Shown: positions 2,101-56,584, counted from the first letter of the stretch. The stretch: DNA of 64,000 bases from Candidatus Yanofskybacteria bacterium (GCA_003514055.1 DOSG01000002.1:13985-77984), one strand, 5' to 3'. Numbers and translations are program-made. The notes: generated by a model not told the origin, from the sequence alone.

Positions 2101-2130
2101 ATCGCTCTTTATAAAGACACACACATCACA

Positions 2131-2454
2131 ATGGCAAAGAAAACAGAAACAAGTCAGAGAATAAGGATCAAGTTGAAGGCTTACGATAATAAGATTATCG
2201 ACAAGTCGGCTCAACAAATAATCGAAACCATCGAAAGATATGGTGGTAAGCCCATTGGTCCCGTGCCATTGCCAACAGAGATTCACAAATACACCGTGAA
2301 TCGCTCGACCTTCATTGATAAGAATTCCAGAGAGCAATTCGAGATGAGAATTCACAAGAGGATTATTGACATCAATACTCCGACTCCAAAAATTATCGAC
2401 GCGCTGATGAATCTAAACCTGCCGTCTGGAGTCGACATCGAAGTCAAGATGTAA
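2131..2454 (+). CDS. rpsJ: 30S ribosomal protein S10
   Basis: [10 protein letters not shown]...PLPT motif, 107 aa. Confidence 0.95.
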
Positions 2455-2730
2455 GCGTGACTAGCTAATACTTATTACTTTACTTTCGGCGTATGATGAG
2501 GTATCATATTCCGGAGACTAAGGTCATAATAAAAATCGGTAGAATTTATCCGGCCAACCCTGAGATTACCGAAGGGTCCGGTTTTCTAAAAATGCACCGA
2601 TTCCAGTTATAATCTTAATTATTCCGCGGGCAAAAAGATAAGTATCATATTTTCTTTTTGTTAGACAACATTCGCAAGAATAGGGTCTGTTTCCGCCGGA
2701 AGACGGATTTTTATTTTATTAGCCTAGATC

Positions 2731-3345
2731 ATGAAATTCATAATTGGAAAAAAACTAGGTATGTCCCAATTTTTTAGAGAAGATGGGGCAGTAGTACCCA
2801 TGACTGTCGTGGAGGTCACGCCGAATGTTGTGGTACAGGTAAAGACCGTCGAGAATGATGGCTACGAAGCTGTACAGCTTGGCTTCGGATCAAAAAAGAA
2901 CAATACCAAGGCTTTGAAGAAGCACTTTAAAGATTTGGGGTCTTTTGCTTTGTTGAAGGAATTTAAGGGCTCAAAATTTGCTGATAAAGATTTAGCCGTC
3001 GGTGATAAAATAGACGCGTCATTATTCGAGATTGGTGACAAGGTTAAGGTTACCGGATTAGCCAAGGGCAAAGGTTTCGCCGGTGCCGTTAAGAGACACG
3101 GTTTCCACGGTATGCCCGCTAGTCATGGCCACAGATCAGTTCAGAGACACGTCGGTTCTATCGGGCAGAGATTTCCTCAGCACACGCTTAAAGGTTTAAG
3201 GATGGCCGGAAGAATGGGTGGCGGCAAATCAACTGCCAGAGGTCTTCAGATTGTTCATATCGATCAAGAGAATAATCTTATTTGTATAAAAGGCGCGTTA
3301 CCGGGCAATATCGGTGGCGTGTTAGAAATAATTTCGAGTAAATAA
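2731..3345 (+). CDS. rplC: 50S ribosomal protein L3
   Basis: MKFIIGKKLGMSQ...; L3 family. Confidence 0.95.
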   Translation: MKFIIGKKLGMSQFFREDGAVVPMTVVEVTPNVVVQVKTVENDGYEAVQLGFGSKKNNTKALKKHFKDLGSFALLKEFKGSKFADKDLAVGDKIDASLFEIGDKVKVTGLAKGKGFAGAVKRHGFHGMPASHGHRSVQRHVGSIGQRFPQHTLKGLRMAGRMGGGKSTARGLQIVHIDQENNLICIKGALPGNIGGVLEIISSK

Positions 3346-3346
3346 A

Positions 3347-3991
3347 ATGGAAGCAGTATTATATAACCAAAAAGGAGATAACATCGGTACGGTAGACCTT
3401 CCAAAGGAGTTTTTTGGTGTAGCCATGAGCGAGGATCTATTGCATCAAGTTGTTGTTTCCCAGATGGCTAACCAGAGACAAGTTATTGCTCATGCCAAGG
3501 GCCGAGACGAGGTCAGAGGTGGAGGCAAAAAACCATGGAAGCAGAAAGGCACTGGTCGTGCCAGGCATGGATCAATTAGATCTCCAATTTGGAAGGGCGG
3601 CGGCGCTACTCATGGCCCAAGAAAAGAGAAGGACTACTCAAAGAAGATCAACGCAAAGATGGCCCAGAAAGCTTTTAGAGTTGCCCTATCGGCCAAGTTG
3701 AGGGATGGTCAGATATTCATAGTTGACGAGCTTAAGCTGGAAGTACCAAAGACCAGAGAAGTTACGGCGATATTGAAGAATATGTCGAAAAATTTCGAGA
3801 ATGCTAGGCTTGGGAGCACGTTGATGGTATCAGGAACCAACAGGAGAGACTTAGTTATTGCTTCTGGGAATTTGAAGAATGTTGACACGATAGAGTCTAG
3901 GAATTTAAATGCCCTGAAAGTTCTTACTTTTAAGAACATAATTATGACCAAGGATTCTATTGAAAAAATGGTCAAGTCCACCGTTAAATAA
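3347..3991 (+). CDS. rplD: 50S ribosomal protein L4
   Basis: GGGKKPWKQKGTGRAR... L4 signature. Confidence 0.95.
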   Translation: MEAVLYNQKGDNIGTVDLPKEFFGVAMSEDLLHQVVVSQMANQRQVIAHAKGRDEVRGGGKKPWKQKGTGRARHGSIRSPIWKGGGATHGPRKEKDYSKKINAKMAQKAFRVALSAKLRDGQIFIVDELKLEVPKTREVTAILKNMSKNFENARLGSTLMVSGTNRRDLVIASGNLKNVDTIESRNLNALKVLTFKNIIMTKDSIEKMVKSTVK

Positions 3992-4423: not shown

Positions 4424-5248
4424 ATGAAAAGTTATAATCCTACAACACCATCAAGAAGACATGCCACGGGATATAGTTTTGACAATCTAACCAAGGTTGC
4501 TCCTTTGAAGTCTTTAAAGGGTGGGATTGTGAAATCTACCGGCAGGAATAACCAGGGTATTATAACCAGCTATCATCGCGGCGGCGGCGTTAAGAGACTT
4601 TATAGATTCGTTGATTTTAAACAAAAAAAGTTTGATATACCTGGCAAGATTTTTTCAATAGAATATGATCCGAATAGAACAGCTAGGATCGCCAGAGTTC
4701 ATTTTGCCGATGGCGAAAAGATGTATATCCTTGCTCCGGAGGGAATGAAGGCCGGTGATCCGATTATATTTTCGGAAAAGGCACCATTGAAGTTGGGCAA
4801 TAGAATGAAATTGAAAAATATTCCTCAGGGAATGATGGTCTATAATGTTGAATTATTCCCTGGTCAGGGCGGGAAGATCGTCAGATCTGCTGGAGGCGGA
4901 GCTACGGTTTTAGCCAGCGATGCGGGGCATGTCCACTTAGTGATGCCTTCATCTGAGGTTAGGATGGTTTCTGAAGAATGTTATGCTTCTGTCGGTCAGG
5001 TCTCGAACCAAGAGCATAGCTCAATAGTCCTCGGTAAGGCCGGCCGATCAAGGTGGCTGAACAAGAGACCCAAGGTTAGAGGAACAGCCATGAATCCGGT
5101 TGACCATCCGTATGGCGGAGGAGAGGGGAGACAGGGTAGAGGAACAAGACGACCTAAGACCAGACAAGGTAAGATTACTGGAGGCAGGAAGACTAGGAAT
5201 AAGAAGAAAAAGTCGGGCAAGTTCATAGTTAGAAGAAGGCACAAATAA
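4424..5248 (+). CDS. rplB: 50S ribosomal protein L2
   Basis: L2 family, GRNNQG..., Gly/Arg C-terminus. Confidence 0.97.
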   Translation: MKSYNPTTPSRRHATGYSFDNLTKVAPLKSLKGGIVKSTGRNNQGIITSYHRGGGVKRLYRFVDFKQKKFDIPGKIFSIEYDPNRTARIARVHFADGEKMYILAPEGMKAGDPIIFSEKAPLKLGNRMKLKNIPQGMMVYNVELFPGQGGKIVRSAGGGATVLASDAGHVHLVMPSSEVRMVSEECYASVGQVSNQEHSSIVLGKAGRSRWLNKRPKVRGTAMNPVDHPYGGGEGRQGRGTRRPKTRQGKITGGRKTRNKKKKSGKFIVRRRHK

Positions 5249-12900: not shown

Positions 12901-12914
12901 TTGTTAAATAAAAA

Positions 12915-12945
12915 TACCGCCCCAGCTGGGGCGGTATTTTTATTT
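12915..12945 (+). terminator. Rho-independent terminator after secY
   Basis: taccgcccc-agct-ggggcggta followed by tttttattt. Confidence 0.85.
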
Positions 12946-16420: not shown

Positions 16421-18361
<1,941 letters not shown>

Positions 18362-18377
18362 AAAATGACGGCAGTGT

Positions 18378-18420
18378 CCTACAAAAATACGACCCATACG
18401 GGTCGTATTTTTGTAGGCTT
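18378..18420 (+). terminator. Rho-independent terminator (18-bp perfect stem) after surface-protein gene
   Basis: cctacaaaaatacgaccc-atac-gggtcgtatttttgtagg. Confidence 0.8.
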
Positions 18421-18507
18421 AGCAGGGGCCCAACGATCTATATTCAACACAGAGGCTCGAAGTAAAAGCTGGCAAAATTGGCCATTCAGGCGTTATCGGG
18501 AAAGGTG

Positions 18508-18537
18508 TTGACTTGTGTACAAGCTATCTGATATAAT
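18508..18537 (+). promoter_or_regulatory. Sigma70-type promoter for the 23S-5S unit (TTGACT, 18-nt spacer, TATAAT), followed by boxA-like tgctctaatca at about 18612
   Basis: ttgacttgtgtacaagctatctgatataat read directly, about 480 nt upstream of 23S 5' end. Confidence 0.55.
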
Positions 18538-19014
18538 GCCTGTACTTAAATATATGGATAAATCACTACAACTTCTGGTCAAAAGCGGCTGATTGGTCTA
18601 GTGTATTTTTATGCTCTAATCAGAAGCCGCTCGGAAGCGGTAATTTTTTTAAGAGTTTATCTAGACGAGTATCGCGAGTATGGTAATTAAACTCTTACCC
18701 CGCATCCGTAGGCGTAAATGTGTGGTAGAGATAAGTGGATGCAGATAGTATTCGTAGGGATTAAAAATTATACCTTGGCTAGTGGATGGCGGGGTGATCA
18801 AAAGATTGGCTCTCGACGATAGGCCACTAGGCGGCTCTTCGCTGACAGCTAATGAAAGAAGCTTGAAAATTTGTTAGTACGCTTTAGTAGAACGAATTGG
18901 ATATTTGTTTTACTAAAAGCGGGAAAATGCATTAAGTAAAGAAATCACACTGATAGTTACTCATTTGTAGTTAGTAAGAAGAAATATTTATCTAATTTTT
19001 GTAAATCAAAATTT

Positions 19015-22000
19015 AGACGGATATAAGGGCGTATGGAGGATGCCTAGACACTAGAAGGCGATGAAGGTCGTGGCGTGACTGCGATAAACTTCGGGGAGCC
19101 GTCGAGCGGGCTTTGATCCGGAGGTAACCGAATGGGGCAACCCAATATGACAAACTCATATTATCTCGCGTAAGCGAGATGCGTACCTGGGGAAGTGAAA
19201 CATCTCAGTACCCAGAGGAAAAGAGAACGAAGTTATCCCCTTAGTAGCGGCGAGCGAAAAGGGAACAGCCTAAACCGATTTCATAATTTATTATGTCGTC
19301 GGGGTAATAGGGATAGTACAACTAAAAATTTGAATTTCGGTCTTCTTGATCGAGATTCAAGTTTTTAAAAGAAGTTACAAATTCGTGCGTTAGCAGAATG
19401 GCCCTGGAATGGCCAACCAAAGAAGGTGACAGTCCTGTAAGCGAAAACAAACGAACTTCTGTATTATTTCCTGAGTAGCCCGGGATAAGGATGTCCTGGG
19501 TGAATTTGTCCATACTACTGGATAAGGCTAAATACTTCTAGTGATCGATAGTGAACCAGTACCGTGAGGGAAAGGTGAAAAGCACCCCGATGAGGGGAGT
19601 GAAATAGCAACTGAAACCATATGCCTACAAAGAGCAGGAGCCGTACTTTGCACAGAGATCCTAAGTCCTAAACGAATTGGAAAATTGTTTAGAGTTTGGA
19701 AATTAGAATTTAGAGTTTCCGTGCAGGGTGCGGTGACTGTGTGCCTATTGAAGAATGACCCAACGAGTTTATTTAAATTACACTCTAAGTCCTTATGGGA
19801 CGAAGGGGAAGGGAAACCGAGTGTTAATAGCGCGTCATCCAACTTAAATTTTTGGACTACGTAAGTTCAAAAATTTAAGTTGGATATGTAGTTTGAGTAA
19901 GACCCGAAGCCAGGCGAGCTAACCATGACCAGGATGAAGGTTACCGAAAGGTAACTGGAGGTCCGAACCAGTTGGTAGCGCAATACCATTGGATGAGTTG
20001 TGGTTCGTAGTGAAAAGCTTATCGAGCTTGGTAATAGCTGGTTCTCTCCGAAATGCCTTTAGGGGCAGCGTTGCACAGTAGCAGAGGGGGTAGAGCACTG
20101 AATGGTAATCCGTGCCCTTTTGGGTAGGACTACCAAACAAACTCCGAATACCTTTGTGGAATGTGCGGCAGTGAGTAAGCGGGGGCAAAGCTTCGTTTAC
20201 GCAAGGGAAACAGCCCAGATCACCGCTTAAGGTCCCAAAATTTAGACTAAGTGAAAAGGAAGTGTTTTGCCTTAGACAGGTAGGAGGTTGGCTTAGAAGC
20301 AGCCATCCTTTAAAGAGTGCGTAATAGCTCACTATTCGATCTCATCGCAAGATGAGGAGGCAAAGTGCGCCGAAAATTTATAGGGGCTAAGTCTAATACC
20401 GAAAGCGTGGGTTCGGTGATTTCATAAAGGAAAGTTGTGGACAGAGATAGTTCAAGGGAAGAACATCTGGCCTCATAAGCCAGAGATACGTGGCTCAACT
20501 CCACGGCTCTGTCCCATAAGTCGGGCGGGAACGACAATCAATTTCATACAGAACCTGTCTGCCAGACACAGCGGGTTCCACGATTGTTGTTTTCGTCCGA
20601 CAACCTTTCATCTCGTTCTTCGAGATGTCCTTTATGAAACCACCGAGCGGTAGGAGAGCATTCTGATCTGCTGTGAAGGTTCGCTGTGAAGCGGGCTGGA
20701 GCGGTCAGAAGGGAAAATGTTGGGATGAGTAACCGCAAGACCGGTTAAAGTCCGGTCCGTCGTAAGCCTAAGGTTTCCTCCGCGATGGCAATCATCGGAG
20801 GGTTAGGCGTCCCTAAGGATAACCGTGCTTTCGAGCGCGGGATGCCGATGGTGAGCCGGTTAATATTCCGGCCCCACTTATGTATATCTGATTGAGATGA
20901 CGGGCAACACAAGATCAAGCACATTATTGGATTTGATGTTTTCCACCCATAGACTTTCTACCAGGAAAATCCGGTAGAGGCCGCAAGGCAATGTCGAGGG
21001 TAGAAGAAATCGTCGCAAGACGAGATTTGATCGAAGAGGGCTCCAAGAAAAGTCTCTAATGTTAGTACATGAGTGCACGTACCTAAAACCGAAACAGGTG
21101 GGCTGGTGTAAGTGCACCAAGACGAACGGGTGATTATTGGTTAAGGAACTCGGCAAAAAAGCGGCCGTAAGTTCGCGATAAGGCCTGCCGCCGCAAGGCG
21201 GCCACAGCTAAAGAACCCCTGGCGACTGTTTATCAAAAACACAACTCCGTGCTAAGCCGAAAGGCGCTGTATACGGGGTGACGCTTGTCCGGTGCCGGAA
21301 CGTTAACGGTGGAGGTGGTATGTCGCAAGATGTACTGCTGACGCCCGAAGCGCCGGTGAACGACGGCAGTAACTATAACTGTCTAAAAGTAGCAAAATAC
21401 CTTGTGGGGTAAGTTCCCACGCGCATGAATAGCGGAACGACTGGGGGACTGTCTCAACCAATAGCCCGGTGAAAATGCAATGTCGGTAAAGATGCCGACT
21501 TCCCGCGCCAAGACGGAAAGACCCCGGAAGCTTCACTGCAGCTTGGTATTGGTCTACGAGTTGTTATACGTAGCGTAGTGAGTAGGATTTGAAGCCACAC
21601 TCTCGGGTGTGGTGGATCCGCCAATGAAACACTCATTTTAACGATTTGTAGCTCTAACCGGTAACACCCTAAAAGGGTGGGACAATAAAAGCTAAAGTAA
21701 GCTCCTGGTGATAGATTTATTACTGAGAATTTTAGTAATCAATCTTATGGAGTTATTTTAGATTTTATCAATGTCTTACTTTTCTAGGGTGTTATCGAGA
21801 CAGTGCCTGGCGGGCAGTTTAAGTGGGGCACTTTCCTCCCAAAAAGTAATGGAGGAGTTCATCAAGGTTGGCTAGCTCCGGATGGAAATCGGAGCGATAG
21901 TGTAAAGGCACAAGCCAGCTTTACTGCAAGGCGGATATGCCGCGCAGTTGCGAAAGCAGGACCTAGTGAACCGACTCTAACTCGTAGGAGTGGAGAAGAT

Positions 22001-22456
22001 CATCAGATAAAAGCTACTCCGGGGATAACAGGCTGGTACTGCCCGAGCGTTCACAGCGACGGCAGTGTTCGGCACCTCGATGTCGGCTCGCCCTATCCTG
22101 GGACTGAAGAAGGCCCCAAGGGTTTGGCTGTTCGCCAATTAAAAGGGTACGCGAGCTGGGTTCAAACCGTCGTGAGACAGGTTGGTCCATATCTGGCGTG
22201 GGCGTTGAATATTTGAGAGGGGTTGTCCCTAGTACGAGAGGACCGGGACGAACAAACCTCTGGTGAACCAGCTGTTCTGCCAAGAGCATCGCTGGATAGC
22301 TATGTTTGGTTCTGATAAGCGCTGAAAGCATATAAGCGCGAAGCAGGCCTCAAGATGAGATATTCTGGATCCCTTGTAGACTACAAGGTTGATAGGACTC
22401 AGGTGTAAGCACAGCGATGTGTTCAGCCGAGAGTTACTAATTGATCCTCATCCGTC
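19015..22456 (+). rRNA. rrl: 23S ribosomal RNA (about 3.4 kb; includes expansion insertions at about 20430-20650 and 21680-21790)
   Basis: Conserved 23S segments: ggatgcct...gaaggtcgtg; ggggaagtgaaacatctcagtacc; gtgaaccagtaccgtgagggaaaggtgaaaag; agacggaaagaccccg; ggggataacaggctg; cacctcgatgtcggctc; tagtacgagaggaccgg. Confidence 0.92.
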
Positions 22457-22547
22457 TAAATTTTGCTTAGCAAGATTTAGATATTTCTTCTGTAACTGTT
22501 AGTGTAATCACTTAATGTTTTTTGATAGAGTAGTTGGGAGTATCGAT

Positions 22548-22628
22548 TTTTCGAGTGCGGGCTGTATTTTCCTGATGGAAAATCACCCTCTCGCTCGGCG
22601 CCGTCGCGCCTGCGCGGGCCTCTCAAAA
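22548..22628 (+). repeat. Copy A of an ~80-nt structured intergenic repeat family, inside the 23S-5S spacer
   Basis: tttcgagtgcgggctgtattttcctgatggaaaatcaccctctcgctcggcgccgtcgcgcctgcgcgggcctctcaaaa; matches copies at 44.1, 50.9 and 52.7 kb. Confidence 0.75.
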
Positions 22629-22675
22629 CCGACACTCCCAGCTACTCTGGTAGTGTCAGAAAGATCGTGTTTAGT

Positions 22676-22788
22676 GTAAGGTAGCTATACCAAGGGTGCT
22701 CCACCTGATCCCATTCCGAACTCAGAAGTGAAATCCCTTATGGCCCATGATAGTCGGTTTTCCCGGCGAAAGTAGGTAGCTGCCTCAC
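22676..22788 (+). rRNA. rrf: 5S ribosomal RNA
   Basis: ccacctgatcccattccgaactcagaagtgaaa ... gtaggtagctgcctcac aligns to bacterial 5S; helix I pairs with G.U wobbles. Confidence 0.85.
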
Positions 22789-22867
22789 ACTGATCACGAT
22801 TTTTAGTTACTTGCTAATGAGTGTACTACGTGAGACTATATGTCTAGTTCTTTTTGGAGTAAACACG

Positions 22868-32326: not shown

Positions 32327-32333
32327 TCAACGA

Positions 32334-32372
32334 GATAAACAAAACCGCCCCTTTGGGGCGGTTTTGTTTATC
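32334..32372. terminator. Strong terminator (18-bp perfect stem) after rpoC
   Basis: gataaacaaaaccgcccc-ttt-ggggcggttttgtttatc. Confidence 0.85.
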
Positions 32373-32457
32373 TGCCACAATAATTATCCGCCTTTTTACT
32401 TGCTAACTTGGCCAGATTATTTGTATACTTATAAGGCAATTAAAATCATGGGAAGAC

Positions 32458-35789: not shown

Positions 35790-35808
35790 GTTATTAATAA
35801 TTTATTCG

Positions 35809-35848
35809 AACTAAAAAGACGATGGCATCTGCCATCGTCTTTTTAGTT
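35809..35848. terminator. Bidirectional terminator between convergent recA and rpsR
   Basis: aactaaaaagacgatggc-atct-gccatcgtctttttagtt. Confidence 0.85.
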
Positions 35849-35853
35849 CACTC

Positions 35854-40761: not shown

Positions 40762-40801
40762 AATGGCGGTCTTCTAAACCTGAAGGCCGCCATTGTTTTT
40801 C
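40762..40801 (+). terminator. Rho-independent terminator after phosphohexomutase
   Basis: aatggcggtcttc-taaacct-gaaggccgccatt then gttttt. Confidence 0.7.
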
Positions 40802-40850
40802 AGCCCGTACTCAAGAAAGCCACAGTCTCGCTCTAAACGCTCTTACATAA

Positions 40851-40898
40851 GATTAATCAACCTAAAACGCCCATATGGGCGTTTTAGGTTGATTAATC
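40851..40898. repeat. Perfect 23-bp-arm palindrome (hairpin), putative terminator of the convergent rnj gene or a protein-binding site
   Basis: gattaatcaacctaaaacgccca-tat-gggcgttttaggttgattaatc. Confidence 0.6.
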
Positions 40899-40903
40899 TG
40901 AGC

Positions 40904-42754
40904 TTAGACTTCCAGTATGACTGGCAAGACCATTGGTCGACGTTCTGTCTTTTGGAACAGGAACTGTCCAACCTGATTTCTAATTTGATCTTTGAGATAA
41001 GCCAAGTTCGGATTTGTTATGTTCTGGGCTTCTACTATATATTTTATTTTCTTTCTAATTTGGCCTAGCAACTCTTTATTGTCTTTAAGGTATATAAAGC
41101 CACGAGAGATTATATCGGGACTACCCTTAACTTTTCCGTTATTGGCATCGACTAGGGTAATGACAACGATGAATCCATCGGCGGCCAGTATCTGCCTATC
41201 ACGCAGAACAACATTGCCAATATCGCCGATACCAAGGCCGTCAACAAAGACATAGTCTGATGGCGCTTGTTTCTTATCAAACCACCATTTATCTTTTTCG
41301 ACGTGAGTAACCGTTCCATTGTCGGCAATTATGATGTTGTTTTCGGGAATTCCTTCCTCCATGCCTAAGAATTTATGATTCACCATCATGGAATATTGTC
41401 CATGAATTGGCATCAAGAATCTAGGCTTAATTAGCTGGATCATTCTTCTTAGATCTTCTTTGCTACCGTGCCCGCCGGCATGAATATCTAGCATTTTATA
41501 ATTAAATACCTGAGCTCCATTTCTGTAGAGTTGATCTTTTAGGAACTGAACATTCCTTTCGTTGCCTGGGACGACCGAAGAAGAGAATATGTACGTATCT
41601 TTCTTGTGTGTCTGTAGGTGCTTATGCTCTCCGCTAGCGATTCTCATGAGAACGGCATTGCCTTCGCCTTGCGCTCCGGTAACTATGGCAGTTACTTTCT
41701 CTCTTGGATAATTGTGAACCTCATCCATTGTTATCTGAGTGCCTTTTTGGAGTTTCAGATATCCAAGCTTTTTACATATTTCGACATTGCTCTTCATCGA
41801 ATAACCATCGAACACAACCTTACGACCGAATTTCTCGGATATAGTTATGATCTGTTGGATACGGTTGATAAGAGATGCGAAGGTTCCAACGATGACCATG
41901 CCCGTAGAATCTGAGAATAATTTCTCCAAGTTCTTGGTAACATCTTGTTCGGAGAGTGAGTGACCTTCGGATTCAGCTCCAGTTGAGTCGGACATCAGTA
42001 ACAGCACGCCCTCATCGGCGATCCTTTTCATCTCTTCTATGTCTGCTGGCAAATCATTGACTGGGGTATCGTCGAATTTATAGTCAGACGTGTGAACGAC
42101 ATGTCCAAGAGGAGTTTTTATGACTATCTCTAAGTCGTCAGGAATTGAATGGTTTATTCTCAACACCTTCACCGAAATCTTATCGCTGATCTTAATCTCG
42201 TCTCCAGCCTTAACCTCGTTCACGACTAGAGGTTTCTGGAATTTGAAGTCGTCCTGCCTCTTAATCATTATGGCTCGAGTTAGGGGAGCGGCGTATATAT
42301 CTGGGTCGCCAATCTTATCTCTAAGGAACGGCAAAGCTCCGATGTGATCCATATGACCATGAGTAAAGAACATGGCCTTAACCATATCTTTTTTATCTTC
42401 TAACCATCCAACATTAGGTAGGATGGAATCAATACCGGGCATATTTTCTTCTGCCCATCTCAATCCGCAGTCAATCAAGATAATGTCATCATCGTATTGG
42501 ATGGCCGACATATTCCTGCCGATCTCACCTAAACCGCCCAGATGGACAATTTTAAGCCCTCCGGTTTTGCTATCGGTTTCCTTGTAGTTCGGATCTTTAT
42601 CGGTCCTAAAGACTTTTATGCGTCTTACGACCGGTTTTGACCATTCACGACCGCGGCCACCGCCGCGAGGGGACTTCTTTTTCGGCATAGCCGGAGAAGT
42701 CGTTGGTGCAGCCGGAGCCGATGTGGCTGTGGCTACTATTTTTTCTTCTATCAT
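40904..42754 (-). CDS. rnj: Ribonuclease J (metallo-beta-lactamase/beta-CASP) with ~75-aa low-complexity N-terminal extension
   Basis: FFTHGHMDHIGALP, beta-CASP region. Confidence 0.9.
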   Translation of the reverse strand: MIEEKIVATATSAPAAPTTSPAMPKKKSPRGGGRGREWSKPVVRRIKVFRTDKDPNYKETDSKTGGLKIVHLGGLGEIGRNMSAIQYDDDIILIDCGLRWAEENMPGIDSILPNVGWLEDKKDMVKAMFFTHGHMDHIGALPFLRDKIGDPDIYAAPLTRAIMIKRQDDFKFQKPLVVNEVKAGDEIKISDKISVKVLRINHSIPDDLEIVIKTPLGHVVHTSDYKFDDTPVNDLPADIEEMKRIADEGVLLLMSDSTGAESEGHSLSEQDVTKNLEKLFSDSTGMVIVGTFASLINRIQQIITISEKFGRKVVFDGYSMKSNVEICKKLGYLKLQKGTQITMDEVHNYPREKVTAIVTGAQGEGNAVLMRIASGEHKHLQTHKKDTYIFSSSVVPGNERNVQFLKDQLYRNGAQVFNYKMLDIHAGGHGSKEDLRRMIQLIKPRFLMPIHGQYSMMVNHKFLGMEEGIPENNIIIADNGTVTHVEKDKWWFDKKQAPSDYVFVDGLGIGDIGNVVLRDRQILAADGFIVVITLVDANNGKVKGSPDIISRGFIYLKDNKELLGQIRKKIKYIVEAQNITNPNLAYLKDQIRNQVGQFLFQKTERRPMVLPVILEV

Positions 42755-43114: not shown

Positions 43115-44059
43115 TTAGTTGTTCCTAGCTCTTTTGTATTCGTCTATGATCGGGGTTGGCGCGGGAGCTATTCCTAGTGATTCTGCCAAATAAAAACTTG
43201 TCCAAAGACCAAAAATGTAGTTTTCTAACACCTTTTCTAGTAGCGAACTACTAGGAGAGACATTAACAGTAGAATAAGTATACCCTAGTTTGGTTAAAAT
43301 TGCAATGGTGGCCTCGATGCTTTTGGCTATTCTCGGATCGTCTTTCTGGTCCCGAATTATGATGGGATGAATCGAGTTTTGTGAGGCGGCCAGGCCTTCC
43401 AGCTCGTTATGATTTAGCGCTGGAAAGTAATTCCACGCTGCCGGAACTTTAGCATTCTCATTAAATAATGTCTTCCAAAAACCTGCTAGCTTTCTCCATT
43501 TAAACGATGAGTACATCAGAGGAGTTCTCTTGCCAATGCTTTCGGCTATAATCTTAGCTTCTTTTTCTAATCTATCTTGATCTATAGATACGTTGCCGAG
43601 CTCAATGCCTAATATACCTAGAAGAGCTCCCAACTCATAGCCAGCTCCCAGTCTAGCCGGGAAATTATCATCTTCAAGGTCGACGTAGGGGACACCTCTT
43701 TCTTTAGCCATATCTATCATTTTGCCGCCTTTAGATATGACAACCACTGGTAGGCCTCTATCTATCGCCGCGCTTAAGGCGGAGATCGTCTCTTCGGTGT
43801 TGCCCGACCAAGACATGCAGATAACTAAGCTTGATTTATCTATCCAGCCGGGCAAGTCATAGTCTCGGTTAATAAAAACCTTGGGGCGGCTATCCTTATT
43901 CTGCTCTGATGTCAGCATCCAGAGTATCTCTCCAGCAACAATAGACCCGCCAATGCCAGCGATTACGTAGTCGTCATATTCTCGATCTAACTTCTTTTCA
44001 GTTCCTAGCTTGTAGCCAGCTTGTAGCTGATCCGTAAAGCCTCGTATAACCTCTTTCAT
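43115..44059 (-). CDS. SIS-domain bifunctional phosphoglucose/phosphomannose isomerase-like protein
   Basis: GIGGS and SWSGNTEE SIS motifs; archaeal-type PGI/PMI architecture. Confidence 0.7.
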   Translation of the reverse strand: MKEVIRGFTDQLQAGYKLGTEKKLDREYDDYVIAGIGGSIVAGEILWMLTSEQNKDSRPKVFINRDYDLPGWIDKSSLVICMSWSGNTEETISALSAAIDRGLPVVVISKGGKMIDMAKERGVPYVDLEDDNFPARLGAGYELGALLGILGIELGNVSIDQDRLEKEAKIIAESIGKRTPLMYSSFKWRKLAGFWKTLFNENAKVPAAWNYFPALNHNELEGLAASQNSIHPIIIRDQKDDPRIAKSIEATIAILTKLGYTYSTVNVSPSSSLLEKVLENYIFGLWTSFYLAESLGIAPAPTPIIDEYKRARNN

Positions 44060-44090
44060 TTTGATTTTTTGCCTCGGAGGTGGATGTGAG

Positions 44091-44173
44091 TTTTGAGAGG
44101 CCCGCGCAGGCTCGACTGGAGCCGAGCGAGAGGGTGATTTCTCAGTAGAGAAATACAGCCCGTACTCGAGAAA
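44091..44173 (-). repeat. Copy B of the ~80-nt structured repeat family
   Basis: Reverse complement tttctcgagtacgggctgtatttctctactgagaaatcaccctctcgctcggctccagtcgagcctgcgcgggcctctcaaaa. Confidence 0.75.
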
Positions 44174-44191
44174 CTTATAGCCACCGTAGAT

Positions 44192-45982
44192 TTATTTAGA
44201 TGATCTCTTGGTATTAATATACCATTTTTCGACATTAACGAAACGGTCAGATGGCATCGAGATAATTTTGGTTTTAAATCCCTTAATGTCCTTTGCCTGG
44301 CCGTATAGGTAGTCTGGGTTATACAGGAATATCGCGGGGATATCCTCGATGACTATTCTTTGAAAGTCGTCATATTTTTTCATTCTCTCGATTGGATTGA
44401 GAGTCTGGCGTGCTTCTTCTAGTATTGTATCTGCAGTCTTGTTGTCGTATAGGGCTAGATTTAGTCCCTTGTCTTTCTTCTGGGATGAATGCCATAGCGT
44501 AAATGGATCTGGATCTATGCTCAGAATCTCTCCAAAAAGCAAAATCTCGTAAGCCCTTTCTCTTATGGTTTGTTGAAGTGCGGCGATGGGTAGAACTTCG
44601 ATATTCACTTCAAAGCCAATTTTTCCCCACTGCTCTTTAAGGATGTCGGCCGCTTCGGATAATTCGGGCCAGGTTGAGGTGGTTATTTTTATGGTTAATC
44701 TTTTTTCGTTTTTGCCAGTTCCTTTTCTGAGAACGCCTCTCTCGTCCGGGTTAGTCCATCCAGTCTCTTTCAATACCTGCTTAGCCAACTCAGTATCGAA
44801 ATCATATTTCTTAACTTCGTTATTTATATCTATAACGTCGCCCACCAATGGCGAGTTAACTATGCTACCATGCCCGTCCAACACTTTATTTATGATCTCT
44901 TGGCGATCTGTGCCATAAGCCAAAGCTAATCTAATATTTTTATCAGCTAGTACCTCGCTCTGATTGGTGTTCATGAAGGCTCCAAAATATCTTGGCATCT
45001 TAAGCTCCTGCACGTTGAGCCTGTTCCTGAATTTAACCTTATCTAGATTTACGGGAGAGATGTATCCAAGATTCTGGATATCATTTCTATTGTAGGCCTC
45101 AATGAGTTCAATCTCTGAGGCATAGAAATTTAATTTTATAGTGTCTATGTGGGCCCTCCCGTCGTAATAGTTCTCATTAGCGGAAAGTTCGTAGGAGGTT
45201 ATTGTGCCTGTGTTATCTTTCTTTAACTTATTGAACTTATACGGTCCGGAGCCGATTGGCTTGAGATTGAGTTCGGATAGAGAGAAATTTATCGGCTTTA
45301 CTTCTTGCCAGACATGCTTCGGCAATATATTTAGAGTCAAATTATTCAAAAATTGGGCATACTTATCGTTTAATTTTAATATTAGAGTCAATTCGTCGAC
45401 TTTTTCGACGGTGACGCCAGTCCAGTTGGCTTTCTGAAGGCTGCCATAGTCCGAGCTCTGAGCGGTTTCAATAGTAAACAAAACATCATCTGCCGTTAGC
45501 GCTACGCCGTCGTGCCACTTTATGCCCGGTTTAAGATAGACGGTATATTTTAGGCCATCACTAGATATGTCGTATGACTTTGCTAGGTCGGGGACTAACT
45601 TACCCTCTTCGTTATATTTTAGAAGTCCCGAGTATATTAAGCTTACTAGATCTCGATCGGCGTCATTGGCTTGAGATAGAAGTGGATTTATGTGGCGTGG
45701 CTCTCCGACGATACCTTCAACAAAAGAGCCTCCATAATCTGGAGTCTCTTGGGTGTAGTGTCTGTAAGCGGTAACCGGAATAGATAATAATGAGCCTAAT
45801 ATAATTACCAAAAAACTGAAGATGATATATCTTTCTTTGGTGGATAATATTTTAGAAAGAAGTCTAGCCTTTTCTTCTAGGCTTTTGAAAAAGCGCTTTT
45901 TTGGTTTTATAGCTGGTAGCTTGTTGCTATCTTCGGGCTTGTAACCAAAAAAATCATCCAATTGGTTTTCGCTTTTAAGCAT
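44192..45982 (-). CDS. ABC-transporter substrate-binding protein, family 5 (OppA/DppA-like), N-terminal TM anchor
   Basis: SBP_bac_5 pattern (KWHDG...TADDV); 596 aa. Confidence 0.8.
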   Translation of the reverse strand: MLKSENQLDDFFGYKPEDSNKLPAIKPKKRFFKSLEEKARLLSKILSTKERYIIFSFLVIILGSLLSIPVTAYRHYTQETPDYGGSFVEGIVGEPRHINPLLSQANDADRDLVSLIYSGLLKYNEEGKLVPDLAKSYDISSDGLKYTVYLKPGIKWHDGVALTADDVLFTIETAQSSDYGSLQKANWTGVTVEKVDELTLILKLNDKYAQFLNNLTLNILPKHVWQEVKPINFSLSELNLKPIGSGPYKFNKLKKDNTGTITSYELSANENYYDGRAHIDTIKLNFYASEIELIEAYNRNDIQNLGYISPVNLDKVKFRNRLNVQELKMPRYFGAFMNTNQSEVLADKNIRLALAYGTDRQEIINKVLDGHGSIVNSPLVGDVIDINNEVKKYDFDTELAKQVLKETGWTNPDERGVLRKGTGKNEKRLTIKITTSTWPELSEAADILKEQWGKIGFEVNIEVLPIAALQQTIRERAYEILLFGEILSIDPDPFTLWHSSQKKDKGLNLALYDNKTADTILEEARQTLNPIERMKKYDDFQRIVIEDIPAIFLYNPDYLYGQAKDIKGFKTKIISMPSDRFVNVEKWYINTKRSSK

Positions 45983-47049: not shown

Positions 47050-48306
47050 TTAAGGCGTAGTCATATTTCTGTGGAGTTTGCGGTAGTAGCTGATGGCGAA
47101 GCGGTGAGCTTCGGCGTCGACATTGAGAACTATGTTTCTGACGTCAGCTGGAAGCTTATCCAATTTGATAGGCAACTTGCGTCCGCGTATGTATATGTGA
47201 CTGCCGACGTGTTTCTCATTTTTCGTCAGAGACAATAGCGCAATATCTTTTGGCACTATGCTCGAGGCTATATTCAATTGTCCCTTGCCGCCATCTATTA
47301 TCACTAGGTTGGGCTTTGCCCATTCTGAATGCCTGAAACGCCTAGTCAAAATCTCTTTAAGCATGCGAGTATCGTCTGAGACATTTGAATCTCTAATTTT
47401 AAATTTTCGGTAACCACTTTTATCTGCTAACCCATTCTTAAATGTGACCATTGACCCAACGGCGTTGATGCCCTGAATATTAGATATGTCGTAACCCTCT
47501 ATTCTGACGGCGCTAGTTAGTCCGAAAAATTTCGCAATAGTCTCTAATTTTGAATTATGATCTTCGTCATTAATTCTTTTATCGATTATTTGCGAGTTTC
47601 TGAATATTTTTTTAATTGCATCAAGCTTATCTCTGATCTTGATGGCTTCGTCGAATCTTTCTTTCTTGCCTAAGATAATCATTTTTTTCTTTAAGCTTGT
47701 CACGATATTATTTCTCTTTCTCGCTAAAATCTTCTTAATGATGTATATATTCTTGTCGTAATTCTTGATTTCATCTTTGGTAGCTTCACGTTTTTTTAGA
47801 CAGCAAAAACCAGAACAATTACCAATATGATAGTTGAGACAATAGTTATTGTGAAGTTGTTTACAGGTACAGTAGAGGAATGCTCTTCGAAGTTGCTTCA
47901 ATGTGGTTTTGAGTGCCGTGCTATCGGTGAATGGCCCGATGTCTTGGATGCTCATCGGCTGACGAACAATCGTTATTCTTGGAAATTGATCATCGGAAAA
48001 TTGGACATATGAGTATTGTTTGTCATCTCGTAAAACTATATTGAACTTTGGACGCAGCTTCTTTATCAGCTGGGCTTCCAAAATCAGAGCTTCAATATCG
48101 GAATCGGTGTTTTGAAAGTTTATGATGGTAGCTGCCTGGATCATGGTCGTTATTCTAGTATCCGTGGGTCGGGAATAGCTCTTGAGCCTATTCTTTATAT
48201 TATTGGCCTTACCTACGTACAAAATTGCATCTTTATTTCTAAATATGTATATTCCTGACCCATTTGGGGCTTTTGCTATGATATTTTTGAGTTTTCCGGC
48301 TATCAT
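47050..48306 (-). CDS. uvrC: UvrC-like excinuclease, short form (GIY-YIG, Cys4, UVR and RNase-H-like domains; no C-terminal HhH2)
   Basis: N-terminus GIYIFRNKDAILYVGKANNIKNRLKSY; Cys cluster; ends ...DAEAHRFAISYYRKLHR. Confidence 0.85.
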   Translation of the reverse strand: MIAGKLKNIIAKAPNGSGIYIFRNKDAILYVGKANNIKNRLKSYSRPTDTRITTMIQAATIINFQNTDSDIEALILEAQLIKKLRPKFNIVLRDDKQYSYVQFSDDQFPRITIVRQPMSIQDIGPFTDSTALKTTLKQLRRAFLYCTCKQLHNNYCLNYHIGNCSGFCCLKKREATKDEIKNYDKNIYIIKKILARKRNNIVTSLKKKMIILGKKERFDEAIKIRDKLDAIKKIFRNSQIIDKRINDEDHNSKLETIAKFFGLTSAVRIEGYDISNIQGINAVGSMVTFKNGLADKSGYRKFKIRDSNVSDDTRMLKEILTRRFRHSEWAKPNLVIIDGGKGQLNIASSIVPKDIALLSLTKNEKHVGSHIYIRGRKLPIKLDKLPADVRNIVLNVDAEAHRFAISYYRKLHRNMTTP

Positions 48307-48336
48307 TTGGACCTAAGTATACCCTAAAATACACTA

Positions 48337-48366
48337 TTGACAAACGGGGTATAAGTGTGCTATAAT
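48337..48366 (+). promoter_or_regulatory. Consensus sigma70 promoter (TTGACA, 18-nt spacer, TATAAT) facing the GC-rich cassette
   Basis: ttgacaaacggggtataagtgtgctataat read directly; followed by 5'UTR hairpin tggagcc-gtt-ggctcca. Confidence 0.55.
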
Positions 48367-48440
48367 GGGCATACAGTACGGTACAATTTGATTCAGCATC
48401 GTAAACTCGAAATGGAGCCGTTGGCTCCAAGAGGACGAAG

Positions 48441-48833
48441 ATGGCAATCAGGAATGAGCTTCGGGTGGCGTTTGACGCATTGCGGGAGCGGATCATCCGC
48501 GACAAGACCAAGCGTCTGCCGGATCTGAGCGCGGCCATCGAGGCGGCGTTCGAGGTTGGCGACGACGAAGAGGTCGATCGTATGATGGGCCTCCGCGAGA
48601 GGCTCGAAGCGACGATCGAGATCGATGAGCTGGAACTGCGCCTTCTCGGCAACGAGATCGGCCAGCCGTTCCGGCAAAACGACGTCGTCGACGTACGCAT
48701 CATCTCGTGGGGCCTGGGCGGCAAAGGCCAGGCCGAGGTGAAGATCGCGGCTCGCGACGGGAAAACCGTCGTTCGCCACATGCATCTCATCAATGGGCGT
48801 GATCGCTACGGCAACCGCTATGCGACATTCTAG
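48441..48833 (+). CDS. Hypothetical 130-aa protein in a >60% GC island
   Basis: Strong GC3 periodicity in this frame; gagga RBS; no family recognised. Confidence 0.55.
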   Translation: MAIRNELRVAFDALRERIIRDKTKRLPDLSAAIEAAFEVGDDEEVDRMMGLRERLEATIEIDELELRLLGNEIGQPFRQNDVVDVRIISWGLGGKGQAEVKIAARDGKTVVRHMHLINGRDRYGNRYATF

Positions 48834-48845
48834 GAGGAGGAAATC

Positions 48846-49058
48846 ATGACGCAGGTACTCGGCAAGACTCCGGCGGGCAAGTTGAAGGTTCTCGTCGACG
48901 GACGTGAGTGCGAAGGCTGCCCCGGCAGCCTGATCGCCACCCACGAGCCGGGCATTTTCACCAGAGAGGGCGAGTTCATCGCTCTGCCGGTGGTGAGCGA
49001 CGTCGAGACGCATCAGCTCGCGGTGCCCACGGTCGACGGCCAGTTCCTCTTCTTGTAG
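48846..49058 (+). CDS. Hypothetical 70-aa protein in the GC-rich island
   Basis: aggaggagg Shine-Dalgarno 7 nt upstream; GC3-rich frame. Confidence 0.5.
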   Translation: MTQVLGKTPAGKLKVLVDGRECEGCPGSLIATHEPGIFTREGEFIALPVVSDVETHQLAVPTVDGQFLFL

Positions 49059-49272
49059 GGACCAGCTCTCGGCGACGGCGCCAGGACGGGTCGGAGGCAA
49101 AGTCTCGACCAACTAACGGCAATCGCCGCCGTCCCGTCCACTCCAACAACAAAAATAGACTGCGCGATGTGCGCAATCAGGAGCGTCGAATGCCAGGTTG
49201 AACGCCACGGTGATGGGTTCCGGAAAAAACCCTCGGGTCAAAGCAGGCATGACCTTGGAACAGAACCTGTAA

Positions 49273-49297
49273 GCGGCACGCGAGTGCCGCTTTTTTT
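49273..49297 (+). terminator. Rho-independent terminator closing the GC-rich cassette
   Basis: gcggcac-gcga-gtgccgc followed by ttttttt. Confidence 0.8.
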
Positions 49298-49461
49298 CAT
49301 GCTTTAAAACTGCGCTTCGCCCCATCCATTTTTTCATCTTGTCCTCGACTACGCCAAGTCTAATCGATAGAGAAACAATGATGCAGGCGAGGACACGATG
49401 AAAAGATACTATTGATGGCGCCGCCATTGTTTTTTACTCGCTATCTGATTACCATGTCTGT

Positions 49462-50451
49462 ATGGATTATTTGCGGGATTCAATTCTTGCGACATTGGCC
49501 TATTACGACATCTTAGACATGTCGCTGACTCATCTTGAGGTTTATAAATTTCTCATTAACCCAGCGAGAGTTTATAGAAGCTCAGAAGAAATAAAAGACG
49601 CTTCACTGCATGACGTTATAGCCATGCTAGCCAAAATGGTTAAGTCGGAAACGATTGGCCAAAAAAATGGTTTCTATTTTTTACCGAGAAAGGATGAGCT
49701 ATACGACTTAAGAATAGCTAGGGAGAAAATTGCTACTCAGAAATGGAAAAAGATGATGAGCTTGGCTAAGTGGTTTGCGATTGTGCCATATTTGCGCGGG
49801 CTGTTCGCTAGTGGCTCAATGGCGGTGGGTAATGTAAATGAGAAAAGTGATTTTGATATTCTAGTTATCTCTAAGTCTGGGCGTCTATACACGGCTAGAC
49901 TGTTTTTGTATTTAGTCGCTTCGCTCATGCGCTCAAGGAGGGGCCGGTACGACAAGATAGCGCCGAATAAATTTTGTCTTAATCATCACATAATCGATAC
50001 AAAGCTTAGGTTAGAGCATGAAAGCCTATTTAATGCTCAGACCTACGCTAGTCTCAAGCCAATATTAATAGAGCAAGACTTGTTCAATAGTTTTTATTCT
50101 GCGAATAACTGGATAAACAAATTCGTGTGCAACTTTAAGCCGAATAGTGACTTCGTTGAGAGACGCTTGGTGCCGAATAAATTCTTAGGCGTGGTGGCGA
50201 AGGCGATGGAATCTTTACTGAATAATCGACTCGGAGATCTCATAGAGAAGATTTTAAGAAATTATCAGCAACGTCGAATTAGGAATAATCCAGTTACTTA
50301 CGCGACTAAGGGTAGGATCATCTTTAATGACGTGGAATTGGAATTTCATCCATATTCCTTCGAGGCTTCAGTCGTTCGTGATTATAATGATAAGGTTCAT
50401 AGGCTTGGCCTATTGCCACCATTTGAGGAGAGGGATTCTGGCCTAAAATAA
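49462..50451 (+). CDS. Polymerase-beta-superfamily nucleotidyltransferase-domain protein
   Basis: hG[GS]x9-13Dh[DE]h motif: GSMAVGNVNEKSDFDILVI. Confidence 0.6.
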   Translation: MDYLRDSILATLAYYDILDMSLTHLEVYKFLINPARVYRSSEEIKDASLHDVIAMLAKMVKSETIGQKNGFYFLPRKDELYDLRIAREKIATQKWKKMMSLAKWFAIVPYLRGLFASGSMAVGNVNEKSDFDILVISKSGRLYTARLFLYLVASLMRSRRGRYDKIAPNKFCLNHHIIDTKLRLEHESLFNAQTYASLKPILIEQDLFNSFYSANNWINKFVCNFKPNSDFVERRLVPNKFLGVVAKAMESLLNNRLGDLIEKILRNYQQRRIRNNPVTYATKGRIIFNDVELEFHPYSFEASVVRDYNDKVHRLGLLPPFEERDSGLK

Positions 50452-50566
50452 TCTTGACTTAAAAAAATCTACGACTATAATTAGCACTTAAGATATAAGA
50501 GTGCTAATTTTATTCGTAATCAATAGGATTAATTGGTTACGGGTTTGGTTGGCATATAAAATAAAC

Positions 50567-50860
50567 ATGTTAAAACCGCTATCTGATCACGTGGTACTGG
50601 AGCCAATCCGAGAAGAAAAAAAGAAAGGAGGGATAATCTTACCCGATACTTTAGATAAAGAAAGATCTGAGAAGGGCAAAGTGATTTCCGTGGGTCCTGG
50701 CAAATACGATCCGGCAGTTGCCGGAGGCAAAAGGATGCCTCTGCAGGTAAAGAAGGGCGATGTAGTTCTATTCACCAAGTATGGCCCGAACGAAGTTAAG
50801 ATGGATGGTAAAGAATATCTAATCGTCAAGGAAGACGATATCTTGGCAATAATAGACTAA
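50567..50860 (+). CDS. groES: Co-chaperonin GroES
   Basis: LKPLSDHVVLEP...; start set at MLKP. Confidence 0.93.
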   Translation: MLKPLSDHVVLEPIREEKKKGGIILPDTLDKERSEKGKVISVGPGKYDPAVAGGKRMPLQVKKGDVVLFTKYGPNEVKMDGKEYLIVKEDDILAIID

Positions 50861-50896
50861 TTAAAACCTAAACTTAAAAACGATCAGTAATGTGCA

Positions 50897-52636
<1,740 letters not shown>

Positions 52637-52676
52637 TCATTTTTTAAAGTCACGAGAAAGGGCATAGGTATGGGTT

Positions 52677-52798
52677 TTTCGAGTACGGGCTGTATTTCTC
52701 TACTGGGAAATCACCCTCTCCCTACAGAGACTTGGAGGATGGGCTAAAGCACCATCCCTCCGAGGCGGCGCCGTCGAGCCTGCGCGGGCCTCTCGAAA
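52677..52798 (+). repeat. Copy D of the repeat family, carrying a nested 45-nt hairpin insertion, inside the stem-loop of the groEL terminator
   Basis: tttcgagtacgggctgtatttctctactgggaaatcaccctctcc[ctacagagacttggaggatgggctaaagcaccatccctccgagg]cggcgccgtcgagcctgcgcgggcctctcgaaa; flanks gggcatagg...cctatgccc-ttttt. Confidence 0.75.
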
Positions 52799-52932
52799 CT
52801 CACGCCTATGCCCTTTTTGTTTGGCTGCAATAACCATGGCTGTCTTTTCGGCCTCAAAGACAGCCATGGTTATTGATTGACCGGAGCGACTTAATGTTCT
52901 AGAATTTAGGTAACAATTTAAATACAAATACT

Positions 52933-56461: not shown

Positions 56462-56584
56462 ATTTAGTATCGGAGTCAACCCATTTATCTATGACGAATG
56501 TGCGACCCGAGTACATAAATTACAAACAAAAATACACGAATTATTCGTGTATTTTTGTTTGTCTAAAATTGCTAAAATGTATTT

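Follow-up and report, generated by a model that had tools for sequence, protein, structure and literature searches.

An uncultured Candidatus Yanofskybacteria bacterium has a copy of a structured repeat in the spacer that separates its 23S and 5S rRNA genes. On balance, we favour the view that the repeat family is a proliferating intergenic element, selfish in the manner of REP, ERIC or Correia sequences, and not a set of orthologous RNA genes. The copy in the rRNA operon would then be a passenger, discarded with the spacer. Our analysis concerns a 64-kb stretch of DNA, hereafter the window, which exact protein matches assign to Candidatus Yanofskybacteria GW2011_GWF1_44_227. The source is a metagenome-assembled genome (MAG) from an aquifer and belongs to the Candidate Phyla Radiation (CPR). 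Members of this radiation have tiny genomes and unusual rRNA genes. Their repeats and RNA processing are little known. Judging from the sequences searched, the family appears to be a dispersed palindromic repeat without earlier description, confined to a clade of Candidatus Yanofskybacteria.

Features are listed in Table 1. According to Rfam covariance-model boundaries, the 23S-5S spacer spans 22462-22676 (215 nt). A preliminary description had placed the end of the 23S gene at about 22456, the start of the 5S gene at about 22676 and the spacer length at about 220 nt. The Rfam positions, 22461 and 22677, differ from these by at most 5 nt. The same boundaries put the repeat, copy A, wholly outside both mature 23S and mature 5S rRNA. 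Hence, its assignment to the spacer stands (sequence, Rfam). The spacer sequence is the same in five independent assemblies of the organism, so the spacer with copy A is no assembly artefact. Directly after the 3' arm of the 5S processing stem (~22783-22804), TTTTT forms the operon terminator. No 16S gene was found in the whole window and protein genes precede the 23S-5S pair (16421-19012). Hence, 16S is unlinked from 23S-5S. Among the genes upstream of 23S, one encodes a sortase-like protein and another a surface protein of 646 aa that contains a long (TP)n repeat (17238-17391).

Copy A begins 65 nt past the 23S 3' end, beyond the 23S processing stem. It scores 141 bits with a covariance model of the family (22523-22653). 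A 16-bp outer stem, pairing 22526-22541 with 22634-22649, closes the entire element. Inverted flanks had been reported to bracket the repeat and this is correct; agtagttgggagt and actcccagctact are fully complementary except for one G-U pair. When 22525-22650 was folded, a single closed hairpin of 124 nt resulted (22526-22649). The stem is nearly continuous over ~28 bp; single mismatches or small loops divide it into runs of 16, 3, 4 and 3 bp. The fold has an energy of -64 kcal/mol, compared with a mean of -37.2 for shuffled sequences (z = -7.8; 0 of 200 shuffles as good). The hairpin also forms when the whole spacer between the processing stems is folded. Computation thus agrees with the earlier suggestion of an autonomous structure; that such a structure is excisable or processed, as was also suggested, goes beyond this evidence. 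The processing stems of 23S and 5S lie on either side of the hairpin, and it overlaps neither of them. Because it is self-closed, it is predicted not to compete with these stems.

Copy A was considered as an intrinsic terminator and rejected. The stem is followed by CTCTGGTAG with no U-tract, and a terminator scan made no call. We conclude that copy A is no intrinsic terminator, because CTCTGG and not a U-tract comes after the hairpin. A promoter scan of the spacer identified no promoter-like site. Transcription of the element together with pre-rRNA, as previously proposed, is therefore a sound expectation: the gap is 215 nt, without a promoter-like site and without a U-tract after the hairpin.

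Table 1. Features of the rRNA operon and repeat copies in the window, and 23S-5S spacers of relatives
Feature	Position or length	Strand	Details
23S rRNA gene	19013-22461	+	3449 nt; Rfam LSU_rRNA_bacteria, 2331.8 bits, model 1-2925
23S processing stem, 3' strand	22450-22483	+	partner 18989-19022, upstream of 23S; inverted repeat, 34 nt, 85% complementary
Copy A outer stem, left arm	22526-22541	+	MFE folds, sequence; contains agtagttgggagt (22529-22541)
Copy A conserved core	22548-22628	+	81-nt match to copy at 50897-50977; core end 22628/32
Copy A inner part P1		+	TTTTCGAG / CTCAAAA; consensus structure
Copy A inner part P2	22559-22588	+	consensus structure
Copy A inner part P3	22597-22610	+	consensus structure
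Copy A outer stem, right arm	22634-22649	+	MFE folds, sequence; contains actcccagctact (22634-22646); then CTCTGG
5S processing stem, 5' strand	22660-22681	+	partner ~22783-22804; fold of 22652-22812
5S rRNA gene	22677-22788	+	Rfam 5S_rRNA, 73.2 bits
Remnant	40801-40833	-	left end of core only; repeat detection and alignment; missed by covariance model; other hairpins adjoin
Copy C	44066-44197	-	fills gap between genes 44192-45982 (-) and 43115-44059 (-); sense to transcription
Copy B	50872-51002	-	between groES (50501-50860, +) and groEL (51005-52636, +); antisense to transcription
Copy B outer stem			ACGATCGGCAATGTGC / GCACATTACTGATCGT; own to copy B
Copy D	52651-52823	+	just after groEL; long form with extra 42-nt hairpin
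Copy D outer stem			AAAGGGCATAGG / CCTATGCCCTTTTT; intrinsic-terminator shape
L079 spacer	about 60-70 nt		element absent
L018 spacer	70 nt		element absent
L013 spacer	about 90 nt		element absent; FtsW 62% identical, nearest species representative
L080 spacer	about 155 nt		element absent; own GC-rich hairpin present
L024 spacer	192 nt		element absent
L081 spacer	about 240 nt		element absent; carries partial 5S duplicate

Spacers of relatives were read using the conserved gene order 23S-5S-(hypothetical)-FtsW-RpoB. By covariance model, the element was absent from the 23S-5S spacer of all six relatives in Table 1. Removal of the 124-nt hairpin from the 215-nt window spacer leaves ~91 nt, which is close to the ~90 nt of the nearest relative. 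Hence, the element accounts for the spacer length. The earlier contrast with the spacers of well under 100 nt in many bacteria holds in part; the element explains the length, but a long spacer is not unusual in the group, element-free relatives ranging from ~60 to ~240 nt. A sister genome (Logan SRR28423913, L071; neighbouring protein 87% identical) has a copy at the same spacer site, in the opposite orientation. That copy is just upstream of the 5S processing stem and the contig stops within it. The spacer of L013 (~4985-5020) and copy A have TTTCGAGTGCG (11 nt) and CGCCGTCGCG (10 nt) in common, in the same order. These matches could be what a deletion left of the element, or could reflect chance together with 5S-stem homology. 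The CGCCGTCGCG match overlaps the 5S processing stem and so is attributable to 5S-stem homology. In L081, the spacer duplicate of the 5S 5' part occupies 1752-1800, just upstream of the real 5S. The 5S of L013 (5033-5172) has an insertion of ~28 nt relative to that of the window.

The window contains four full copies and one remnant. With the covariance model, full copies score 123-141 bits (E about 1e-28 to 1e-32). The model was trained on 12 copies and applied to ~240 kb, where only short copies matched. An exact-pattern scan of JGI metagenomes returned 12 loci, representing 8 further distinct copies in aquifer contigs. Diverged copies in related Yanofskybacteria contigs were recovered by the covariance model (L073, 121 bits; L074, 50 bits). 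In L078, three copies are found within 21 kb, with scores of 74, 67 and 50 bits. Copy density is ~1 per 7-16 kb. The exact pattern gave 0 matches in 185,579 species-representative genomes and 0 in IMG/VR; these zeros set no bound on the range of the family, since diverged copies found later by the covariance model show the pattern to be too strict. BLAST searches of phage and plasmid collections produced no match to the element. A scan of the whole window at Rfam gathering thresholds identified only 23S, 5S and two tRNA-model matches, and the element falls in no family. At E <= 10, the spacer gave a single 19-nt chance match and no ribozyme models. A by-eye likeness of CUGAUGG/CGAAAC to hammerhead core motifs was dropped because the consensus does not fit. 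Short-read (Logan) contigs of the sister genome stop inside copies (L071 1-58, L072 3338-3395). From this, the repeat is a likely cause of interrupted assembly in such short-read MAGs.

The family is GC-rich and non-coding. The core folds as a three-way junction; it measures 82-83 nt, and 124 nt where an optional further hairpin is present. Briefly, P1 pairs TTTC-NN-GAG with CTC-NN-GAAA, P2 is a 12-bp hairpin (GGGCTGTATTTCTC...GAGAAATCACCC) and P3 is a 5-bp hairpin (GGCNC-CAGTC-GNGCC). Conserved junction nucleotides are GAGTAC, CTCGCTC and CTGCGCGGGCC. Unpaired junction nucleotides kept across diverged subfamilies are GAGTACGG, CAGTCG and CTGCGC. Copy D and three metagenome copies carry the optional 42-nt hairpin, placed between P2 and P3. 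A different extra hairpin is inserted at the same point in L078.

Covariation supports this fold. Standard pairs are formed by 90.7% of alignment cells; with partners shifted by 1-3 columns, the share is 37-49%. Double changes are evident in 29 of 43 pairs, and 0 of 500 shuffles reach the observed values. P3 occurs as GGCGC/GCGCC, GGCTC/GAGCC, GGCAC/GTGCC and GAGCC/GGCTC. In L074, P2 is wholly rewritten with pairing fully compensated, and two copies in L078 have a lineage-specific P2 variant in common. If hairpins are selected as RNA, G-U pairs are expected to favour the transcribed strand. We counted 23 wobble pairs for the transcribed strand and 18 for the other; hence, there is no bias. The transcribed strand of copy A folds at -64 kcal/mol and its complement at -70 kcal/mol. 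For copy C, the values are -40 and -52 kcal/mol. Sense and antisense fold energies are mixed among copies, and the test for RNA-strand selection gave no signal. We conclude that the palindromy is strand-neutral, because wobble pairs show no bias and the transcribed strand of copies A and C is the less stable. Strand-neutral palindromy fits a DNA-level need, mobility that requires a hairpin, or a mutational process that matches arms.

Every copy lies within an outer stem of 12-20 bp that is unrelated to the stems of the other copies. The flanks are thus not a special trait of copy A, as had been supposed. Just outside the core, ~7 positions are semi-conserved (ATATGRY / RYCATAT). Beyond these, sequences are unrelated between copies, yet the two arms of any one copy are complementary for 6-15 bp further. 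A copy's own flanks form 14.4 Watson-Crick pairs of 20, while flanks taken from different copies form 7.3 +/- 2.1. For positions 9-24 only, the corresponding values are 9.2/16 and 4.7/16. Comparison of the flanks of copies revealed no direct target-site duplication; the flanks are inverted complements. Hence, cut-and-paste transposition of the classic type is unsupported. In a test for MITEs, conserved terminal inverted repeats were present (core ends TTTC-NN-GAG / CTC-NN-GAAA, with the semi-conserved positions outside). A classic MITE was rejected, as this would call for direct duplications and the flanks are inverted ones. As to a cognate autonomous IS with these termini, the covariance model matched only short copies in ~240 kb and there was no transposase among 10 window ORFs.

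The stems could have arisen in two ways. In the first, the core would land in loops of existing hairpins, which are abundant in this genome. In the second, template switching during replication would extend the palindrome outwards. Replication template switching is reported to make and preserve hairpin stems in one step (PMC8794818). Template switching would also account for growth of the palindrome into unique flanks and for inversion between arms. In favour of loop landing, perfect terminator-type hairpins of 17-20 bp are frequent in the window. Of the empty sites compared, site D favours loop landing, site C (L078) has no hairpin and site B (L072) is unrelated AT-rich sequence. Only site D resembles a former terminator. 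Loop landing cannot explain every copy, since L078 has no earlier hairpin at site C. As a separate observation, the window is rich in perfect or near-perfect hairpins with tiny loops and arms of 17-34 nt, many with A-tract and T-tract ends like bidirectional terminators (12906-12945, 32333-32373, 35808-35849, 40841-40908, 52828-52875 and 56522-56562). A hairpin with 34-nt arms and zero loop adjoins the remnant at 40801-40833.

All copies are intergenic and several span the full gap between two co-oriented genes. Relative to neighbouring genes, about 9 copies are sense and 5 are antisense. Window copies are divided two per strand and GC skew is uniformly positive, so orientation has no leading-strand bias. 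In the groES-groEL gap, the copy is antisense in both the window and L073, and sense in L002 and L074. A copy is thus present there in four species and persists at only 84-85% GroEL identity. The 23S-5S spacer has a copy in two species. Copies are missing from the groES-groEL gap of L072 (unrelated AT-rich sequence), L076 (2 nt) and L078 (16 nt). L078 lacks the element at site C, its gene pair overlapping there (TAATG) with no hairpin present; no closer sister was found at site C above 62% identity. Plain terminators of A-tract, stem and T-tract mark the 3' end of groEL in L073 and L076. In the window, the same position has a terminator-shaped stem, AAAGGGCATAGG...CCTATGCCCTTTTT, with the element as its loop. 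In the sister L072 (GroEL 99% identical), the copy after groEL is in the opposite orientation and has a different stem. A CIRCE (HrcA operator) at copy B was considered, as TTAGCAC adjoins, but dropped because there is no matching half-site.

The family belongs to the generic class of structured palindromic intergenic repeats (ERIC, Correia, BOX, RPE). It is multi-copy, non-coding, intergenic and hairpin-forming, with either orientation and variable presence. Closest in behaviour are ERIC/IRU, Correia/NEMIS and REP-type repeats and, within the rRNA operon, the intervening sequences (IVS) of 23S. What is unusual is nesting in copy-specific stems and frequent flipping. ERIC/IRU elements of Enterobacteriaceae and Vibrio are 127-bp imperfect palindromes, non-coding, that form a long imperfect hairpin. 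They occupy transcribed intergenic regions, including those of operons, in either orientation. Long and short forms arise by insertions at fixed points and presence varies between species. The description of our family is similar: ~100-130 nt, non-coding, hairpin-forming, intergenic in operons, in both orientations and with an optional insertion at a fixed point. However, there is no evident sequence relationship, the host phylum is another, the core is a three-way junction and not a simple hairpin, and nesting in a further copy-specific stem is undescribed for ERIC.

Correia elements (CREE/NEMIS) of Neisseria are small dispersed palindromes, co-transcribed with their neighbours, whose hairpins are reportedly cut by RNase III. 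They end in conserved inverted repeats of 26 bp and duplicate a TA target. In contrast, the termini of our family decay into copy-specific stems and there is no direct duplication. As with REP, BIME and REPIN sequences, the copies are extragenic palindromes, often at gene 3' ends, with genome-specific variants and with hairpin shape kept over exact sequence. REP sequences are 20-40 nt long, have a conserved GTAG head, number hundreds of copies and are mobilised by a RAYT (Y1) transposase. Our element is 82-124 nt long with two internal hairpins, no 5' GTAG and a far lower density. Copy D resembles an intrinsic terminator, with A-tract, GC-rich stem and T-tract like the plain post-groEL terminators of relatives. 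However, the U-tract is missing after copy A and most other copies; the family as a whole is not a terminator.

The IVS of 23S rRNA, in helices 9, 25 and 45, are sporadic stem-loops of ~100-400 nt that RNase III cuts out, leaving the ribosome unharmed (reviews: PMC8708148, PMC4990558). Copy A is likewise a stem-loop carried in the rRNA operon transcript and is sporadic among relatives. An IVS replaces a helix loop inside mature 23S, and its removal fragments the rRNA. Unlike an IVS, our element is in the 23S-5S spacer and would leave both rRNAs intact on removal. In addition, copies are found outside the rRNA operon.

The family behaves as a repeat because its copies are intergenic, in both orientations, gained, lost or flipped between relatives, and marked by lineage-specific core variants. 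The element is dispensable in relatives, which lack it at the same sites. Scanning of 10 window ORFs identified no mobilising gene or transposase. Copy A is most likely a harmless passenger that is trimmed away in rRNA maturation. It would be transcribed with 23S and 5S and, according to the computed fold, would self-fold between the processing stems as an insulated side-hairpin. By analogy with IVS and Correia elements, the likeliest route of removal would be RNase III-type cleavage of the ~28-bp stem and then exonucleolytic trimming. Cleavage in the stem would also help to part 5S from 23S.

It is possible, if unlikely, that the family is instead a domesticated cis-acting RNA module. Such a module would be a double-stranded signal for processing or stability (RNase III site or exonuclease barrier) that separates the cistrons of polycistronic transcripts, such as 23S and 5S, groES and groEL and further gene pairs, and is kept by selection in these reduced genomes. 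Strong covariation of the hairpins points this way, including the fully compensated P2 of a diverged copy. Copies are positioned exactly between co-oriented genes in highly expressed operons, the groES-groEL copy being found in four species and the 23S-5S copy in two, and the stem is long enough for RNase III. A selected function would account just as well for persistence at groES-groEL, for the compensated P2 and for the fact that so small a genome retains the element. However, orientation flips at orthologous sites leave the junction RNA without a conserved sequence at a given site. Moreover, wobble pairs have no preference for the transcribed strand, which folds less stably in copies A and C. 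The element is also absent at the same sites in L072, L076 and L078 (groESL) and in six relatives (rRNA spacer).

A proliferating repeat might also be of a new, 'hairpin-nesting' type. Here, a dedicated protein would recognise the junction, and the element would insert in hairpin loops or build its own stem. It would flip freely and be co-opted as an inter-cistronic signal for processing or insulation, including in pre-rRNA. We consider this combination distinctly unlikely.

The conserved unpaired junction nucleotides (GAGTACGG, CAGTCG and CTGCGC) suggest sequence-specific recognition, and this could take place in DNA. A cruciform or hairpin would then be bound by a nucleoid or topology factor, a recombinase or a Y1-type transposase, as for REP/BIME, and the transcript would be irrelevant. 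Consistent with this, orientation is irrelevant to where copies are located and both strands pair equally well. However, no partner protein was found among the 10 window ORFs scanned, there is no leading-strand bias (two copies per strand, uniformly positive GC skew) and a density of ~1 per 7-16 kb is well under that of classic REP families. We judge a purely DNA-level element to be very unlikely. Least credible of all is a trans-acting product, either a discrete small RNA or an RNA of a new ribozyme or riboswitch-like type, set free from the pre-rRNA spacer and from mRNAs. The three-way junction, conserved unpaired nucleotides and optional hairpin are as in many structured RNAs, and the lack of a match to any known family would make it new. 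However, roughly one copy in three runs antisense to the transcription around it, outer stems share no conserved sequence, searches with Rfam ribozyme models found no match even at E <= 10, and near-identical cores with unrelated flanks indicate recent copying, not old paralogous RNA genes.

Other features of the rRNA genes were also apparent. The window 23S is ~520 nt longer than the bacterial model, owing to insertions. AT-rich hairpin expansions are found at ~19300-19370, ~19650-19720 and ~19837-19885, the last with 22-nt arms that are 95% complementary. The insertion in helix 45 is ~235 nt long (20408-20652) and a tRNA lies inside it. This is a tRNA-Met(CAT)-like cloverleaf with an unusual T-loop (20441-20516, +; ARAGORN; Rfam 43 bits). 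At the same site, and with the same conserved closing stem, L013 has a canonical tRNA-Arg(CCG) with encoded CCA (535-607; Rfam 57.7 bits). The tRNA is absent from helix 45 of two other Patescibacteria 23S genes (L018, L024). A literature search retrieved no report of a tRNA within a bacterial 23S intervening sequence. The helix-45 tRNA is more surprising than the repeat itself. Placed inside an intervening sequence of bacterial 23S, a tRNA would imply 23S fragmentation driven by RNase P/Z. The 3' part of the L013 23S (2130-3775) has two ORFs resembling LAGLIDADG homing endonucleases, and L080 and L081 have Pfam LAGLIDADG matches in the same 23S region. Elsewhere in the window, 1.1 kb at 48300-49430 has 52% GC, compared with 42% for the genome, with uvrC (47050-48306, -) on one side and a nucleotidyltransferase-like gene (49462-50451, +) on the other. 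This region has no convincing ORF, the longest being without a Pfam match, and Rfam at E <= 1 gave nothing beyond chance.

Returning to the proliferating repeat, its presence means that streamlined CPR genomes also carry a structured repeat of this kind, inside essential and highly expressed operons (rRNA, groESL). The family is a natural test of how long hairpins in pre-rRNA are tolerated and processed. Its copy-specific stems and flips are clean material for studying the origin of hairpins, by loop insertion or by template switching. If the copies were instead selected processing signals, they would constitute a lineage-specific layer of operon maturation.
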